Sequence record: PZ534512.1
DNA from: a phage
Length of the DNA stretch: 64,000 bases
Direction: 5' to 3' (one strand)
The notes under the pieces were generated by a model. That model was not told where the DNA came from, did no database searches, and worked only from the letters and a program-made list of their open reading frames with translations. Shown here piece by piece: positions 8,352 to 49,756 of this stretch. Every line of letters begins with the position of its first letter. Position 1 is the stretch's first letter. Made by a program: the position numbers and the translations under genes.

Positions 8352-8909
8352 ATGCAGAAAACGAATCCGGGTTTACAGAGACTATTTCAGATTCCGACAT
8401 TTACCCTATCGAACAGTGACTTGACTAGTGAAATGAAGGTCAAAATTGCTGATACAGCAAGATACTCTTTAAAACAAAACCCGAACCAGGATAAAGCAGA
8501 AGTTATCGAAAGATGCCGTATCGCTGTGTACGCAGAGTTTTTTGTGGCAGATTGGCTAAGCGGATATGTCAATAAAGGCCAAGAAAATGTCGATGATCCG
8601 TACACGTATGCATGGGATGTTTTAGCGCATCCAAAATATTGCGGGCTTCGTGTAGAAGTCAAAACACATCAAACTGACTCGCGTTGGATTTCGGTAACAA
8701 CGGGATGCAGCGGAGAGTATCCATATGGTTCTGGAATAAATTTAGGGCCCATTCTAAATCATCAAGTCGCTGACTGTATAATTATATTCAACACTAAAGA
8801 AATTCATCCAGGTGTCATCCAGTACACTCCGAAGTTCATCGGTGACAGAGAAGACCTTCGTAGGGTTGTAAGAAAAAGCAACTACAACGGATGGTATCTT
8901 TCCATTTAA
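8352..8909 (+). CDS. denB: endonuclease IV
   Basis: 185 aa, size and map position between rIIB and ndd match T4 denB. Confidence 0.75.
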   Translation: MQKTNPGLQRLFQIPTFTLSNSDLTSEMKVKIADTARYSLKQNPNQDKAEVIERCRIAVYAEFFVADWLSGYVNKGQENVDDPYTYAWDVLAHPKYCGLRVEVKTHQTDSRWISVTTGCSGEYPYGSGINLGPILNHQVADCIIIFNTKEIHPGVIQYTPKFIGDREDLRRVVRKSNYNGWYLSI

Positions 8910-16620: not shown

Positions 16621-19600
16621 TTATGCTAAACGAACGATATAGTTAAAAGCAATGTTTTTAACCGTGTTTTCTGTATTACCTGTACTATTTACAGTGATAG
16701 TATGACCATGCGAGCCAATTGCTACCGTGTGGGTATGAGCACCGATACCTACAGTATGGGTATGAGCACCAATACCTACTGTGTGAGCATGGTTACCTGT
16801 AGTGCTTGTAGTACCAGACCAAGTATGAGTATGAGCACCGTCTGAAGAAGTTTTGGCTATATTCGACCCTGCAGTAGCACCGTTCACGGTTCCAGTGAAT
16901 TTAGCGTTGGCGTTTGCACCTACACTATTATATCCGTCATAGAATATGTTATTGGGTATGCCGGCTTGTATCTGAGGACCTGAGCGCGCATGTTGGTGTG
17001 CACCAGCAGAACTCGTAGTACCGCTTACAGTATGAGAGTGGTTACCTGTGGTATTGCTAGTCTTAGTGCCATAGTCAAAGCTACTTGTCGTCTTAGTACC
17101 ATAATCAAAACTCGACGTAGTTTTAGTACCCAAGTCAGTACTTGAAGCCGATGCACTATGGCTATGAGCCTTAACACCATCGGCTTCTGCGCTTAATACA
17201 GCTCGACCACTTGGTTTACCTTTAATAGTTTGCCCGCGCATATCTGGAATTACGCCAGATGGGTAAGCCATAGCCAATTTTGGGTATGCAGACTTATCAA
17301 AAGTCTGGCCTTCCATAATAGCGTAACCGTCAGGAGGAGTATCCGTTGGCCATGGAATAGGAGCACCGATTGGGTAACTCGATACAATATCGGTTTTAAG
17401 TGATTCAATTGTACTGTTTAAATTAGCAAAATTGCCAGAACCACCTGTAATATTGCCGTCTGTACCTAAATAAACTGAACCACCAGCAGAAACACGCTTA
17501 GGAGATATAAAATCACCATTTTTGTTAAATTCCCAACCTAAATCCTTTATAATAGCGCCAGTCGAACCGCCATCGCCGCCTTCATGATAATGAACTCTGA
17601 AGTTACCGCCGTTAATTAGAGTTCCCAGAGAATAACAACTGTAAATTTTTGTTAAATTCCCAACCTAAATCCTTTATAATAGCGCCAGTCGAACCGCCAT
17701 CGCCGCCTTCATGATAATGAACTCTGAAGTTACCGCCGTTAATTAGAGTTCCCAGAGAATAACAACTGTTTCCTTGGACATATCGTTGTTTCAAAATAGG
17801 AACGTAAGTACTTGTATCTGTACGATTAATATTCATATAGAATGGAGCACGAACGTTTTCATTATTTTGTGAAGCAAAAGACCCTGCACCAGCCGGGCGA
17901 ACTGTGTCAGTACATTCAGCATCAATATAAGCTGCTTGTCCTACCTGCATACGGTAATTAGGAGAAATGCGACTATTACTAGTAACAACAACAAGTTTGG
18001 TATCGTTGTCCACAGTAATCATATTACCGCCAGCGCCATCATCGCCTAACGTAACAGAATGGCGCATTTGTACCATACCATTATTAAGACTAATACTAAG
18101 TGGGCGGAGATTACTTATTCCACCACTTTCACCGGCATCTTTAGGAGTCGGGATAATATGTAATGCTGTTTCTGAGCGACGGAAAATAGCACCGTATTCG
18201 GCATTCCAAATTCTTAATGCATCAGCAGTTCCACCAATTTTTACTTGTCCAGTAATAGAAGAACCACCTTGGACAAACAAACCATTAGACATGGTAACAT
18301 TACCGACTAAAGTGCTTAATCCATTAACTTTAAAACTTCCGTCAGTAATAATACTTCCTCTAGCATTAACTTGTCCATTGAACTGGGTTACAACAGGCCC
18401 AGTAGTTTCAGAGCCACTTGGAGCCACACGCTGTGAATAAAAATAATATCCTTGTCCATCAGCTACTTCAAAAACCGTTTCACGATTACGATCGCCAGAT
18501 GCGTTAAATGAATTACCCCATGCTTTAACAGTTACATAGCTTTTATTCTGACCAGCACGAGTACCGCCTTCCCACAAAATTTGCTTAGTGCCATCAATTG
18601 TAGTAGTTGGAGCGAATGTTAGCCCAGCAGTAGAATTATTAGCTGCTAAATATATGCCATTATATATTGAAAGCTGCTTAACAGATGTAATACCGCCATC
18701 AGCATAAAACATTACATTATTAGAGCCAGTTACCAATTTCAAAATACCCGGGTTAACTTCCATGCCTTCTTGAGTATTAATATTAGTTTTGCCTTTACCA
18801 CGGAAATAGTGGTTCATTTTTCCGCCTGAGTTATAGCCAATATGCGTCTGGCCGTCTCCAGCAGTGTTTTCATCAGCTTGTGTTTGAACCGATAAAAACG
18901 CGGCGTTGGTTCCAGGCATAATCCATGTTGTACCTTGGTCCTCGGAACGACCAAAAATCGCTTTACGGGTACTACGGAAACTATCAGGAGTAATAGATGC
19001 TAAAGAAAGACCACTAGCAACTAAATCATATACTCCAGTTTTTTTGTATGATAAGCCTGTTGATGCATCACCGATAACTATATAACATTCGCCCATTGCT
19101 CCAGCGGAGCCGTAGTTATTAATGTTTTCATCTGTTGTAATTGTACCAATTGCGAGTGAGCGTCGTAATACTAAAGCCCCATCATTACGAAGACCCATTT
19201 GTTTATTAACGGCTGTATTACCAGTCCACCAAGAAAGTTCATCACTTTTTCCGGTTTGCGCAGAAGCTAATTCATGATAAATTGTACCGCCTGATTTAGC
19301 TCGAACTTTACGAAGATAGTTTATACCATTTTCTTCGCCTGTTCCAGGATAAACATATTGAACTAATGATTGCGAATCGTATTGTCCAAATGCTTTTGTA
19401 TCTAAAATAATATTTTTAGTATTAATCTGAGGCGAAGTAATATTTCCAATAGCTGCAATATTTCCAGATGTAGTTATACTACCTCCTGATACTGCTAAAC
19501 CTCCACCGTCAACAGTAAATCCGCCGTCACGTCGAAACGTCCAATATTTCGAATCGCCAGATTCATTGATATAATGAATCTTCAACGAACCTTCAGAAAC

Positions 19601-44237: not shown

Positions 44238-44486
44238 ATGATTAAACAATTACAACACGCTCTTGAACTGCAACGAAACGCATGGAATAATGGTCACGAA
44301 AACTATGGCGCATCTATTGATGTTGAAGCCGAAGCTCTTGAAATCCTGCGTTATTTCAAACATCTGAATCCTGCTCAAACTGCATTAGCTGCTGAGCTTC
44401 AGGAAAAAGATGAACTTAAGTATGCTAAGCCTCTGGCTTCTGCTGCACGAAAAGCAGTTCGTCACTTTGTGGTAACATTGAAGTAA
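44238..44486 (+). CDS. rIII: rIII lysis-inhibition accessory protein
   Basis: 82 aa, position downstream of gene 31. Confidence 0.75.
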   Translation: MIKQLQHALELQRNAWNNGHENYGASIDVEAEALEILRYFKHLNPAQTALAAELQEKDELKYAKPLASAARKAVRHFVVTLK

Positions 44487-44554
44487 TTTATTGGAGATTC
44501 ACTGCCTTAGTGTGAGCTAAAATCGAGGAGCCATCGAACTGTCTGATTAATGAT

Positions 44555-44743
44555 TTGCGAATCATTATAGTTTTAAGACCCCGGCAGTTTTATGGTGTAC
44601 CTCTTGAATGTTACTATCATGCGTCAGAAAAGTGTTATCTGTGTAAGTCTTGGTGGTATGATGACGAGGTTTATGGTTATCCTGTCGGTAAATATTCAAA
44701 ACCTAAGTACCCCTTTGAGGGCTTGCGCAGGCAATGCCAATAA
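44555..44743 (+). CDS. hypothetical Cys-rich protein
   Basis: 62-aa ORF. Confidence 0.4.
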   Translation: MRIIIVLRPRQFYGVPLECYYHASEKCYLCKSWWYDDEVYGYPVGKYSKPKYPFEGLRRQCQ

Positions 44744-44775
44744 GTCCTGCATTTTCATTTAAAAGAGAATTTATA

Positions 44776-44952
44776 ATGGCAAAACAAGTTAAAGCAAAGA
44801 AAGCAGTTGAAAAGAAAGTTGGTGATTCTAAACGCGCTGGTTACAAGCGTGGGTCGAACTCTCGTATCAATCAAACTGTTGAGAAGATCATGCGCCGAGC
44901 ACGTGCGGTTCTTCGAGATGATGCTTCTCGTTTTGGTAAGCAGAAAGCATAA
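44776..44952 (+). CDS. small basic protein
   Basis: ATG 44776; MAKQVKAKKAVEKKVGDSKRAGYKRG... Confidence 0.5.
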   Translation: MAKQVKAKKAVEKKVGDSKRAGYKRGSNSRINQTVEKIMRRARAVLRDDASRFGKQKA

Positions 44953-44957
44953 GTTGA

Positions 44958-44985
44958 GGACTCCTTCGGGAGTCCTTTTTTATTT
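44958..44985 (+). terminator. intrinsic terminator
   Basis: aggactccttcgggagtcct followed by tttttatttt. Confidence 0.65.
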
Positions 44986-45062
44986 TCCAAAGATTGCATA
45001 AAGTTGTTTACAGTATAGTTCCTTTGTGATAGTATTATCTTACACAAACAAAGGAGAATAAA

Positions 45063-45395
45063 ATGAAAACGATTAATCTGAACGCTGCAGTTAAAACTAA
45101 ATGCTTCAATGGTAAATATAATGAAACTATGTGGTTCTTAATGGCAGTTGAAGGTGATATTATTGAAGTAGAAACAACAGAAGGTATGGGAACAGATTTC
45201 ACCTTTACAATTCAAGTTCATAATTTCTTTACTGGTTGGATTTATGAATTGAATACAGTAATCGTTGGAAAAATTGAACAAAATGAATTAGGCGAATGGC
45301 ATTATGTTACAGCTCGCCAACGTGCAGAACGCTTAATTGAGAAGATGAAAAAAGTTGGTAAACTTGACATGCAGCATTGGAAAGTAGTAAAATAA
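45063..45395 (+). CDS. hypothetical protein
   Basis: 110-aa ORF after promoter 45008-45040 and ggagaataaa RBS. Confidence 0.6.
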   Translation: MKTINLNAAVKTKCFNGKYNETMWFLMAVEGDIIEVETTEGMGTDFTFTIQVHNFFTGWIYELNTVIVGKIEQNELGEWHYVTARQRAERLIEKMKKVGKLDMQHWKVVK

Positions 45396-45462
45396 TTGTT
45401 TACTTTGGTACAGGATATGATATTATATACCTGTACCGCAATTAAACATCTTGGAGAATAAA

Positions 45463-45828
45463 ATGAACTACATCAACTTTGAACGTAAATATGTTTCTAA
45501 TGGTATTGCAGGTTCTATTGATACTATTTGCCTCTGGAAACATCAAAACGGATCAGTATGCGAAATTGAACAGTATATGACTCCTAACTACGTTTATATG
45601 CGATTTGAAAACGGTATCACGGTTTCAATCACGATGAAAGGTTCCAACTTCAAAATCGCTCTGGATGATGATTTCCGCCAACGCGATTTAGGGACTCATC
45701 CTTGCTGGAATGGTGCTAATCGTAAACTCTTAGTTAAAACTTGGATTCGTCATATTCTGAGTAACAAAGCTAAACCTGAGCACTTGGAAGCAATCTTTGA
45801 TGTAGTTCTTAACGAATTTGATATTTAA
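45463..45828 (+). CDS. hypothetical protein
   Basis: ATG 45463 after ggagaataaa. Confidence 0.55.
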   Translation: MNYINFERKYVSNGIAGSIDTICLWKHQNGSVCEIEQYMTPNYVYMRFENGITVSITMKGSNFKIALDDDFRQRDLGTHPCWNGANRKLLVKTWIRHILSNKAKPEHLEAIFDVVLNEFDI

Positions 45829-45870
45829 AAATAAAATGAGGGGCTTCGGCCCCTTACTGAGGAAAATATT

Positions 45871-46158
45871 ATGTTTATGACTACTTATTTTGATACCCGC
45901 AAAAATTTCTGTGAAGTGGTTTTCTCAAAGGCGCCTAAAGACCTTCCTGCTCATTTGCAGCCTACTAGTGAATCGATTAAAAACTACGTTGATGTGGTTT
46001 GTCCTTTAGAGTTCCGTACTGTAAATGGGCGCGATACTTTAGCTATCACTAAACTCAATCGTGAAATTGACATTGACCCTTCAATTGCGCGTGAAATTAA
46101 TATTTCTGATATTGGCGGTGGTAACGTTAAATCGCATGGTTTTCAGATGAGGTTTTAA
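45871..46158 (+). CDS. hypothetical protein
   Basis: 95-aa ORF. Confidence 0.55.
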   Translation: MFMTTYFDTRKNFCEVVFSKAPKDLPAHLQPTSESIKNYVDVVCPLEFRTVNGRDTLAITKLNREIDIDPSIAREINISDIGGGNVKSHGFQMRF

Positions 46159-46355
46159 TGAAATTCTTTTTAGGTCAAACCGTTGAATTAAAGGGAGTTG
46201 GTATACCTGGATTAATTTCTAAGGTTCTACCTCCATTTAAATGGAGTGGTATTCAAATAAAAGAGGCTTATATTGTTTCCTGGGTAGATGGAAATGAAGA
46301 CCTTCGTATGGGTGATGAATTATCTCCTATCTACGGATTAAAGGAATTAGTATGA
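46158..46355 (+). CDS. hypothetical protein
   Basis: 65-aa ORF. Confidence 0.5.
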   Translation: MKFFLGQTVELKGVGIPGLISKVLPPFKWSGIQIKEAYIVSWVDGNEDLRMGDELSPIYGLKELV

Positions 46356-46558
46356 ATATAATTAATAAGATTTTTGGAATTCAGTACATTAAGGTCACAT
46401 ATAAAGTAACAGATAAAAATCCGTATACTGATGAACACGAAGAACCACAAGTTAAGTCTATTATATTAGAAAAGGACCCTAACTGGCCAGTTGAATTTCG
46501 TCTTCCTTGCTATGGTCATTGGGCTGATGTTGAAATTATAAGCATTGAAAATGTCTGA
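46352..46558 (+). CDS. hypothetical protein
   Basis: 68-aa ORF. Confidence 0.5.
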   Translation: MNIINKIFGIQYIKVTYKVTDKNPYTDEHEEPQVKSIILEKDPNWPVEFRLPCYGHWADVEIISIENV

Positions 46559-47009
46559 GTTAGAGATTAGAAGCAATTTTAGATGGCCATCATGTGCATT
46601 AAGTAATTTCGCCCATTGGCCTTTCGTTATGGATGGTATTCAATTTGGAGGTCTCGAAGGATTCCTCCAAGGGTGTAAGGTGAAAAATGTTGAACAACAA
46701 CGTCGTATATTTGGGTTATCCGGGCTTGCCGCCCAACAAGCTGGAAGGTCTTATGCTAGAGCTCAGGACCGTGGGACCCTCTTCTGGCTTGGAGTTCCGT
46801 TTTCAAGATACTCCCCGGCGTGGAAAGAATTATACACAAATGCATATTTTGAAGCAGCGATCCAAAACAAGGGCTTTCGTGATGCATTACAAGCCTCGAA
46901 AGGAAAAGTTTTGAAGCACAGCATGGCTAGTGGTCTAACAAAAGATGATACAATATTAACCGAAGCTGAATTTATTGATGTGTTAAACCTATTAAGAGAC
47001 TCTCTATGA
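46545..47009 (+). CDS. NADAR/YbiA-like domain protein (putative ADP-ribose-processing hydrolase)
   Basis: 154 aa; LSNFAHWPFVMDGIQFGGLEGFLQGCK resembles E. coli YbiA FSNFAAWPIKVDGKTWPTSEHYFQAQK; locally GC-rich. Confidence 0.5.
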   Translation: MKMSELEIRSNFRWPSCALSNFAHWPFVMDGIQFGGLEGFLQGCKVKNVEQQRRIFGLSGLAAQQAGRSYARAQDRGTLFWLGVPFSRYSPAWKELYTNAYFEAAIQNKGFRDALQASKGKVLKHSMASGLTKDDTILTEAEFIDVLNLLRDSL

Positions 47010-47842
47010 AGCCTACTATTTTAACTGATATTGATGGAGTATGTTTAAGCTGGCAATCAGGTCTTCCTTATTTTGCTCAGAAATATAATCTTCCGTTGGA
47101 ACATATTTTAAAAATGATCCAAGATGAGAAATTTATTTCTCCAGGTAAACTCTTTAATTGTGATGAAGAACTTGGCGTCAAGTTAATTGAAAAATATAAT
47201 CGATCAGATTTTATTCGTTACTTGTCTCCATATAAAGATGCTCTGTGTGTAATTAACAAATTAAAAGAAGATTATAATTTTGTAGCTGTTACAGCATTGG
47301 GTGATTCTATTGACGCTCTGTTGAATCGTCAATTTAATTTGAATGCTCTTTTTCCTGGTGCCTTCTCAGAAGTAATGATGTGTGGTCATGATTCTTCAAA
47401 AGAAGAGTTGTTCAAAAAGGCAAAAGAGAAATATAACGTAATTTGTTATATTGACGATCTCGCTCACCACTGCGATCATGCGAGTGAAATATTACGTGTT
47501 CCTGTGTATTGGATGGCTCGAGGGGAACGTGACAGTATTCCAAAAACCGCTCAGCGAGTTTATACATGGAACGATGTAGAGAATAAGCTTTTTTCACCAA
47601 AGGAAAATAAAGAAAGTTTTGATAGTGAAAAAGCTATAAAAGATGTAATTGAAAAGATGATTAAAAATGATTCTTTTCGTTGGAACACTACCTGGAGAAC
47701 TCCTGGATTTAATCCTTATAATCCATATCATCCATATCAGACACATCCGTTTCAGACATGGAACTATATTAAACCTGGTGGCATAGAGTATTTGTATAAT
47801 AGACCTACTAGTGGTGATAATATTTTCCAAGGAGCATTCTAA
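47006..47842 (+). CDS. HAD-superfamily hydrolase-like protein
   Basis: 278 aa; N-terminal LTDIDGV (DxDG[T/V] phosphatase motif I). Confidence 0.55.
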   Translation: MKPTILTDIDGVCLSWQSGLPYFAQKYNLPLEHILKMIQDEKFISPGKLFNCDEELGVKLIEKYNRSDFIRYLSPYKDALCVINKLKEDYNFVAVTALGDSIDALLNRQFNLNALFPGAFSEVMMCGHDSSKEELFKKAKEKYNVICYIDDLAHHCDHASEILRVPVYWMARGERDSIPKTAQRVYTWNDVENKLFSPKENKESFDSEKAIKDVIEKMIKNDSFRWNTTWRTPGFNPYNPYHPYQTHPFQTWNYIKPGGIEYLYNRPTSGDNIFQGAF

Positions 47843-48111
47843 TGTTTGTTGTTCACACTATTTATGAAAATGAAGGTAATACTACACGTGATTACGGTCA
47901 CGTAAATCAATTTTTTAGATGCAATCCAGAATTCCGAGCTCAAAAAGACGAACGAATTTTTAAAAAATGTGTAGAGCAAGGTTTCATTTACGTCAAACAC
48001 TGGATGCAAGGAAATAAAGTTAGAACCACGTACCATAGGTCTTTGACTGAGCTTAATGATGAATTGATTTATAATAGAGCTGTAAACCAAACTCTAAAGG
48101 ATGAACAATGA
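47842..48111 (+). CDS. hypothetical protein
   Basis: 89-aa ORF. Confidence 0.5.
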   Translation: MFVVHTIYENEGNTTRDYGHVNQFFRCNPEFRAQKDERIFKKCVEQGFIYVKHWMQGNKVRTTYHRSLTELNDELIYNRAVNQTLKDEQ

Positions 48112-49571
48112 TTCTTAAAATTCTGAACGAAATAGCATCTATTGGTTCAACTAAGCAGAAGCAAGCAATTCTTGAAAAGAATAAAGATAATGAATTGCTT
48201 AAACGAGTATATCGTCTGACTTATTCTCGTGGGTTGCAGTATTATATCAAGAAATGGCCTAAATCTGGTATTGCTACCCAGAGTTTTGGAATGTTGACTC
48301 TTACCGATATGCTTGACTTCATTGAATTCACGTTAGCTACTCGGAAATTGACCGGAAATGCGGCAATTGAGGAATTATCTGGATATATCACCGATGGTAA
48401 AAAAGATGATGTTGAAGTTTTGCGTCGAGTGATGATGCGAGACCTTGAATGTGGTGCTTCAGTATCTATTGCAAACAAAGTTTGGCCAGGTTTAATTCCT
48501 GAACAACCTCAAATGCTCGCAAGTTCTTATGATGAAAAAGGCATTAGTAAGAATATCAAATTTCCAGCCTTTGCACAATTAAAAGCAGATGGAGCTCGGT
48601 GTTTTGCTGAAGTTAGAGGTGATGAATTAGATGATGTCCGTCTTTTATCACGAGCTGGTAATGAATATCTAGGATTAGATCTTCTTAAGGAAGAGTTAAT
48701 CAAAATGACCGCTGAAGCCCGCCAGATTCATCCAGAAGGTGTGTTAATTGATGGCGAATTGGTATACCATGAGCAAGTTAAAAAGGAGCCAGAAGGCCTA
48801 GATTTTCTTTTTGATGCTTATCCTGAAATTAGTAAAGCTAAAGAGTTTGCTGAAGTAGCTGAATCACGTACTACTTCTAATGGAATCGCTAATAAATCTT
48901 TAAAGGGAACTATTTCAGAAAAAGAAGCTCAATGCATGAAGTTTCAGGTCTGGGATTATGTTCCGTTGGTAGAAATATACGGTCTTCCAGCATTTCGTTT
49001 AAAATATGATGTACGTTTTTCTAAATTAGAACAAATGACATCAGGATATGATAAAGTAATTTTAATTGAAAACCAAGTAGTAAATAACCTAGATGAAGCT
49101 AAGGTAATTTATAAAAAGTATATTGACCAAGGTCTTGAAGGTATTATTCTCAAAAATACCGATGGATTATGGGAAAATGCTCGTTCAAAAAATCTTTATA
49201 AATTTAAAGAAGTAATTGATGTTGATTTAAAAATTGTAGGAATTTATCCTCACCGTAAAGACCCTACTAAAGCAGGTGGATTTATTCTTGAGTCAGAGTG
49301 TGGAAAAATTAAGGTAAATGCGGGTTCAGGCTTAAAAGATAAAGCCGGCGTAAAATCACATGAACTTGACCGTACTCGCATTATGGAAAATCAAAATTAT
49401 TATATTGGAAAAATTCTAGAGTGCGAATGCAACGGTTGGTTAAAATCTGATGGCCGCACTGATTACGTTAAATTATTTCTTCCGATTGCGATTCGTTTAC
49501 GCGAAGATAAAACTAAAGCTAATACATTCGAAGATGTATTTGGTGATTTTCATGAGGTAACTGGTCTATGA
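48108..49571 (+). CDS. 30: ATP-dependent DNA ligase
   Basis: 487 aa; adenylation motif KADGARC; N-terminus MILKILNEIASIGSTKQKQAILEKNKDNELLKRVYRLTYSRG. Confidence 0.95.
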   Translation: MILKILNEIASIGSTKQKQAILEKNKDNELLKRVYRLTYSRGLQYYIKKWPKSGIATQSFGMLTLTDMLDFIEFTLATRKLTGNAAIEELSGYITDGKKDDVEVLRRVMMRDLECGASVSIANKVWPGLIPEQPQMLASSYDEKGISKNIKFPAFAQLKADGARCFAEVRGDELDDVRLLSRAGNEYLGLDLLKEELIKMTAEARQIHPEGVLIDGELVYHEQVKKEPEGLDFLFDAYPEISKAKEFAEVAESRTTSNGIANKSLKGTISEKEAQCMKFQVWDYVPLVEIYGLPAFRLKYDVRFSKLEQMTSGYDKVILIENQVVNNLDEAKVIYKKYIDQGLEGIILKNTDGLWENARSKNLYKFKEVIDVDLKIVGIYPHRKDPTKAGGFILESECGKIKVNAGSGLKDKAGVKSHELDRTRIMENQNYYIGKILECECNGWLKSDGRTDYVKLFLPIAIRLREDKTKANTFEDVFGDFHEVTGL

Positions 49572-49756
49572 AAGCTTACTTAGAAACAATTGTCGTGGCT
49601 CAAAAAGAAGGTGGAGATGTTTCTACTTCTGTATCACAAATCATGATTGAATTTATAGATGCATATGCTTATAATAAATTCACAGAAACTTTTGATGCTT
49701 ATGAAAAAGGTCCAAAGTTTGAAATATATCGTACTCTCTTACCAATAGATTATTAA
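49568..49756 (+). CDS. hypothetical protein
   Basis: 62-aa ORF followed by GGCCTTCGGGCC hairpin at 49755-49772. Confidence 0.5.
   Translation: MKAYLETIVVAQKEGGDVSTSVSQIMIEFIDAYAYNKFTETFDAYEKGPKFEIYRTLLPIDY

Follow-up and report, generated by a model that had tools for sequence, protein, structure and literature searches.

Phage T4 provides the closest described system for a single-domain enzyme that removes ADP-ribose from phage DNA. Its gp30.3 protein is a member of the NADAR superfamily, in which it represents the phage branch, and in vitro hydrolyses guanosine-linked ADP-ribose without being active on the thymidine-linked form (PMC11125620). Johannesman et al. (Nat Commun 2025; PMC11825919) identified gene 30.3, which they renamed adfN, as the determinant that makes T2 and T4 resistant to DarTG1. 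Once adfN is deleted, neither phage forms plaques on DarTG1 hosts; ectopic expression of the gene rescues phage RB69, and the purified AdfN protein strips ADP-ribose from DarT1-modified DNA (PMC11825919). The E36A and K43A mutants of AdfN-T4 are impaired, with E36A affected both in vivo and in vitro, and frameshift and truncation data from RB69 revealed that the C-terminal helix is needed for full activity (PMC11825919). Rather than binding DarT1, AdfN-T4 acts on the DNA adduct as an enzyme; its full activity is confined to infections by T-even phages, with T5 and Bas25 being barely helped (PMC11825919). What has been published for T4 is an orphan antitoxin-like phage enzyme that repairs the DNA after its ADP-ribosylation by a toxin-antitoxin defence of the host.

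Several related or functionally overlapping proteins have been characterized alongside AdfN. The DarG1 antitoxin is encoded in the DarTG1 operon; in uninfected cells, AdfN-T4 can neither replace it nor neutralise DarT1 (PMC11825919). E. coli YbiA (PDB 2b3w; PF08719) is a chromosomal protein from a LexA-controlled operon that gives no protection against DarT1 in vivo (PMC11125620). The three groups differ at the catalytic position of the last strand, which is a histidine in the phage gp30.3 NADARs, a glutamate in YbiA and an aspartate in BC4488/DarG1 (PMC11125620). T-even phages have another anti-DarT1 factor, AdfA (homologue of T4 gp61.2), which counters the same defence. Mutant RB69 AdfA associates directly with DarT1, whereas AdfN works without binding the toxin (PMC11825919).

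An intact adfN allele upstream of the DNA ligase gene

We analyzed a 64,000-nucleotide stretch of phage DNA, referred to as the window, in which an earlier note had flagged a GC-rich ORF at 46545-47009 as a candidate ADP-ribose-removing enzyme. Region 46352-47100 matched 684 phage records, with an identity of 98.7% to phage T4 and of up to 99.3% to other Tequatrovirus genomes. Mapped on the window, the T4T annotation places genes 30.9 (44734-44952), 30.8 (45063-45395), 30.7 (45463-45828), 30.6 (45871-46158), 30.5 (46158-46355) and 30.4 (46352-46558) upstream of the flagged ORF, and genes 30.2 (47006-47842, plus strand), 30.1 (47842-48111) and 30, coding for DNA ligase (48108-49571), downstream of it. 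The window therefore exhibits the Tevenvirinae gene order 30.4 - 30.3 - 30.2 - 30.1 - DNA ligase, and because the T4T annotation maps onto the flagged ORF, this ORF is T4 gene 30.3, or adfN (46551-47009, plus strand; 152 aa plus stop). The ORF itself was correctly recognized, but its start needs to be moved. Whereas the mechanical ORF list opens the frame at TTG 46545, ATG 46551 is the start according to the T4 annotation as well as the residue numbers used in the literature (E36, K43), yielding a protein of 152 aa and a start codon that overlaps the stop of gene 30.4 (ATGTCTGA). Scanning 44400-49700 for promoters and terminators gave counts no higher than those of shuffled sequences, with promoter-like matches at chance level, and the interval from 30.8 to the ligase gene contained no terminator-like site.

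The window protein and T4 gp30.3 have the same length and share 150 of 152 residues, and in both phages the gene sits between 30.4 and 30.2, ahead of the DNA ligase gene. The two proteins differ only by Q22H and I125M, and position 22 is naturally Q, H or K among close relatives. The window protein retains E36, K43 and H123 as well as the C-terminal helix. RB69 carries the orthologous gene in the same position; there, however, a T insertion at nucleotide 411 removes the last 15 residues and the phage is DarTG1-sensitive (PMC11825919), whereas the window allele is full length. All 27 adfN alleles examined likewise encode 152 aa. Compared to these phage proteins, the DarG1-type NADAR from Geobacter lovleyi (PDB 8bat) is larger, comprising 219 aa as opposed to the 152 aa of the window protein, and has an aspartate at the last-strand position that is occupied by H123 here. 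Moreover, in contrast to DarG1 with its operon partner, adfN is an orphan without a darT neighbour, being flanked by 30.4 and 30.2, and a PADLOC defence-protein search of 30.3 and 30.2 returned no match. The resemblance to E. coli YbiA is low, with about 17-20% identity and a glutamate in the last strand of YbiA.

Taken together, the ORF at 46551-47009 is, with a high degree of confidence, adfN, encoding an orphan NADAR-fold DNA ADP-ribosylglycohydrolase directed against DarTG1. The identity of the gene, its intactness, the fold and the conserved residues are established for this allele. Given the 99% identity to the T4 protein, the Q22H/I125M allele is predicted to behave like that of T4, both in conferring DarTG1 resistance and in removing ADP-ribose from DNA, and a phage carrying the intact gene should be resistant to DarTG1. 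The earlier note had proposed that the protein removes ADP-ribose from guanine and serves as a counter-defence against DarT toxins, and both ideas agree with what had been demonstrated experimentally for T4: hydrolysis of the guanine adduct by gp30.3 (PMC11825919, PMC11125620) and the loss of plaquing of the T4 and T2 deletion phages (PMC11825919). The enzyme function was already known for the T4 protein, so the finding in the window is not new and adds no new biology to what has been described for its 99%-identical counterpart.

According to the proposed mechanism, host DarT1 would ADP-ribosylate guanines in the replicating phage DNA. AdfN, a small single-domain NADAR-fold glycohydrolase whose gene is presumably expressed as part of the early/middle block 30.8-30, ahead of DNA ligase, would then hydrolyse the guanine-ADP-ribose bond, employing the conserved Glu36/Lys43 pair together with the family-specific His123. 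Removal of the adduct should restore a replicable template. AdfN would thus be the orphan counterpart of an enzyme type that serves bacteria as the DarG1 antitoxin.

Family profile and fold place the protein among the NADARs

The family assignment of the earlier note had been derived from the motif SNFA.WP..MDG..F...E.F.Q..K, which can be read directly from the sequence and is present exactly, covering residues S18-K43 (SNFAHWPFVMDGIQFGGLEGFLQGCK; 46602-46679, plus strand). To follow its conservation, we used 104 homologs from a database search, 72 of which were full-length and entered the family alignment. S18, N19, F20, E36, G37, F38, Q40 and H123 were invariant in these 72 homologs, and K43 was found in at least 90% of them. 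The S18-K43 stretch aligns with YbiA residues 29-83, such that E36 and K43 align with the E..Q..K of YbiA. E36 (codon GAA, 46656-46658) is the catalytic glutamate and K43 (codon AAG, 46677-46679) the lysine contacting ADP-ribose, the two positions whose alanine mutants impair AdfN-T4 (PMC11825919). H123 (codon CAC, 46917-46919), which marks the phage (gp30.3) NADAR family, adjoins the last strand, represented by strand E120-122 in the AF2 model. The C-terminal helix, comprising residues 138-151 of the model (46962-47003), is intact; all of these features lie on the plus strand.

When searched as a single sequence, the protein was assigned to the Pfam family Phage_30_3 (PF08010) with an E-value of 7.4e-70 and 233.6 bits against a cut-off of 36, the match spanning profile positions 1-138 of 138, and to PHROG 652 (E 1e-51). 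The protein alone gave no match to the Pfam NADAR model PF08719 (E≤1), NCBIfam (E≤10), PADLOC (E≤1) or PDB sequences (E≤10). As single-sequence searches gave PF08010 only, profile and structure methods were needed to make the link to NADAR. The profile of the 72-member alignment matched E. coli YbiA (2b3w) across the motif (E 0.0043), its sole match among PDB sequences. PF08719 was matched individually by 9 of the 72 relatives (best E 1.5e-7), and one homolog, P0083, has both Pfam assignments. The AF2 model of the adfN protein reached a pLDDT of 92.8 and, in a fold search, retrieved NADAR structures only, with YbiA being the closest by Foldseek. The earlier note had considered that a lack of significant NADAR profile hits would refute the assignment. 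The single sequence formally shows this lack, but the protein is tied to NADAR by its fold, by the profile of its family and by its relatives, which contradicts such a reading. The missing PF08719 match only reflects the existence of PF08010 as a separate Pfam family. NADAR membership is thus supported by profile and fold evidence, and profile, relatives and fold independently reproduce the published structural assignment. A short motif sufficed to recognise a remote family where the Pfam NADAR model misses the sequence.

The GC-rich patch reflects mostly protein composition

The segment 46680-46920 had been described as visibly richer in G+C than the rest of the genome, and the calculation bears this out: its GC content is 0.461 compared to 0.356 for the window (z = 2.8; matched by 0.74% of 241-nt windows). 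The excess is significant but modest; four peaks of this height exist in the 64 kb, counting the segment itself. Delimited best, as the maximal-scoring segment, the patch extends over 46610-46823 with a GC content of 0.51 and has no strand of its own. The entire adfN gene has a GC content of 0.423, ranking second of 88 crude genes by GC and third by GC3. The implied tie of the patch and the overlapping alternative ORF to the function of the protein, in contrast, was not supported.

Analysis of the codon positions revealed GC values of 0.55, 0.45 and 0.39 (positions 1, 2 and 3) for the patch, compared to 0.48, 0.37 and 0.245 for the long ORFs of the window. The amino-acid composition of the protein, which is rich in Ala, Gly, Arg and Gln, explains about 60% of the GC excess. 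Synonymous resampling with the codon usage of the window predicted a GC content of 0.42 ± 0.017 as compared to the observed 0.461, leaving a residual third-position excess (P = 0.013). In 66 distant homologous loci, the GC content of the gene lay on average 0.02 above that of its flanks, with a positive difference in 52 of the 66, and the mild GC excess is therefore a property of the family. We conclude that the patch is mostly compositional, being a consequence of the conserved Ala/Gly/Arg/Gln-rich core and not a separate element. A structured RNA or known RNA family was also considered as the origin of the patch and rejected: no Rfam family matched anywhere in the window, and the patch folded no better than shuffled sequences (z = -0.43).

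The third-position signal could alternatively be a trace of ancestry, if adfN were the relic of a DarG1-like NADAR that was acquired horizontally from a bacterial donor of higher GC content and has not yet been ameliorated. Such an origin would be in line with the elevated GC3 of the patch, with a GC content exceeding that expected from protein and codon usage, with the third rank of adfN by GC3, and with the published phylogeny, in which DarG1-like NADARs are the closest relatives. We nevertheless consider it unlikely. The GC3 excess is a weak signal derived from 80 codons only, the larger part of the total excess follows from amino-acid composition, and the 0.02 mean excess seen in the distant loci is a family-wide feature that does not indicate a recent import. 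Furthermore, the adfN family is found in 231 viral loci, and relatives sharing 36-47% identity reside in genomes with a GC content of 26-66%. Amelioration should therefore be complete in a gene that is this old and this widely distributed across the T4 superfamily.

Two other regions of the window stood out by composition. The GC-richest crude gene (16621-17316, minus strand; GC 0.444, local 241-nt windows peaking at 0.48) has phage tail-fibre repeat and tail-collar matches and represents another composition-driven GC peak. The highest GC3 in the window (0.382) was observed for an ORF of 185 aa at 8352-8909 on the plus strand, which had no Pfam match at E≤0.01.

The nested frame 30.3' is probably not a selected gene

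The alternative-frame ORF at 46687-46914 (plus strand, +1 frame in adfN, 75 aa), which the earlier note had seen overlapping the patch, exists and corresponds to the annotated T4 gene 30.3'. It matches the Pfam family DUF2883 (E 9e-54), and T4 records describe it as 'internal translation in a different reading frame'. Its expression was reportedly observed in the 1994 source paper of the annotation. Were 30.3' a real overprinted protein, translated from AAGGTG-N4-ATG, the GC-rich patch might result from dual coding. Beyond the annotation and the Pfam family, this idea draws on the SD-like AAGGTG located 4 nt upstream of the 30.3' ATG and on the conservation of the frame, which is open in 19 of 27 distinct Tevenvirinae alleles, including lineages at a dS of about 0.85.

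The same set of 27 alleles, all of which have an intact 152-aa 30.3, yielded evidence against dual coding. Premature stops interrupt the 30.3' frame in 8 of them, at three independent sites (alternative codons 14, 35 and 44; the one at codon 35 is a TGA of Mosigvirus alleles that is synonymous in adfN), and the 30.3' ATG is lost in two further alleles, L001 (ACG) and L008 (GTG). The dN/dS ratio in the 30.3' frame amounts to 0.94-1.08, and the synonymous divergence of 30.3 is not depressed by the overlap, with a dS of 0.85 inside compared to 0.78 in the 5' flank and 1.9 in the 3' flank. Consistently, 64% of the third-position sites of 30.3 are variable inside the overlap and 63% outside, and between clades the amino-acid identity is 60% for 30.3' as opposed to 84% for 30.3. 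Openness of the frame does not exceed chance, as the +1 frame was open in 16% of synonymous resamplings in which the 30.3 protein and the window codon usage were fixed, and the SD-like hexamer is forced by the codons for K43-V44. Among the 66 distant homologs, we found no comparable +1 ORF; the longest open stretch had a median of 45 codons, the longest ones occurring mainly in GC-rich loci. Likewise, 30.3' was called in none of the 11 annotated records examined.

Having failed the conservation, selection and chance tests, 30.3' was rejected as a real gene, and it is very improbable that dual coding gave rise to the GC-rich patch. We thus regard 30.3' as probably not a real selected gene and best read it as a by-product of the GC-rich coding sequence, the notion of a very young overprinted protein specific to the T4 clade being a weaker reading. 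The 30.3' (DUF2883) annotation probably should not be propagated. The interrupted frames belong to loci L006 and L085-L091. If 30.3' were real, the published K43A mutation would also destroy its pseudo-RBS (46672-46689).

YbiA-like activity and gene 30.2 as a candidate partner

It is extremely improbable that the adfN protein functions like YbiA, as an N-glycosidase on riboflavin-pathway intermediates or in NAD/ADP-ribose recycling and not on DNA: YbiA is indeed its closest Foldseek structure and the sole PDB sequence match of its family profile, and some sources name its relatives 'YbiA (DUF1768 family)', but its last-strand residue is a histidine and not the glutamate of the YbiA family, and the 99%-identical T4 protein shows DNA de-ADP-ribosylation and a DarTG1-specific phenotype (PMC11825919).

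We considered the adjacent gene 30.2, which codes for 278 aa and whose start overlaps the adfN stop (ATGA), as a possible partner. Its protein starts with MKPTILTDIDGV, in which DIDGV resembles motif I of HAD phosphatases, and one phage record labels 30.2 as 'putative phosphatase' next to 30.3 as 'NADAR domain containing protein'. On the basis of this motif and the third-party annotation, 30.2 may be a putative HAD-like protein. We obtained no match for it in Pfam or PDB sequences and, in PHROG, only a match to a family of unknown function; its single-sequence AlphaFold model had a pLDDT of 35.5. Among close relatives, of the T4 and Mosigvirus type, gene 30.2 comes directly after adfN; only a few of the more distant loci have 30.2, at most 2.5 kb away from adfN. 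Overall, no more than 21 of 81 loci had 30.2 within 2.5 kb of adfN, and 30.2 goes with the ligase gene rather than with adfN; we rejected it as an obligate syntenic partner on these grounds. That 30.2 could be the missing T-even factor, forming with AdfN a two-enzyme module for DNA de-ADP-ribosylation and clean-up, seems to us a rather far-fetched idea.

Broken alleles and database labels

Public assemblies also contain naturally broken versions of adfN, represented by proteins P0014, P0015, P0016, P0049, P0093 and P0007. Some of these are frameshift chimeras of the 30.3 and 30.3' frames, and others are in-frame deletion fusions, in which the C-terminal part of gp30.3 is preceded by the N-terminus of gp30.4, gp30.7 or gp30.8. 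This pattern fits a deletion-prone 30.8-30.3 block and a role of adfN as a dispensable accessory counter-defence gene.

The methods of one of the T4 studies list the T4 NADAR construct as 'gp30.3; residues 1-208' (PMC11125620), compared to a gene of 152 aa both here and in T4; the construct may be tagged or may represent another phage protein. Regarding database labels, the adfN orthologue of NRG-P0074 (L090) is named 'virion structural protein', and the name 'prohead core protein' is given to one feature under the 30.3 match in both T6 AP018814 and vB_EcoM_P8; these labels look like mis-annotations. In most of the 736 matching records, adfN is still listed as 'hypothetical protein'.
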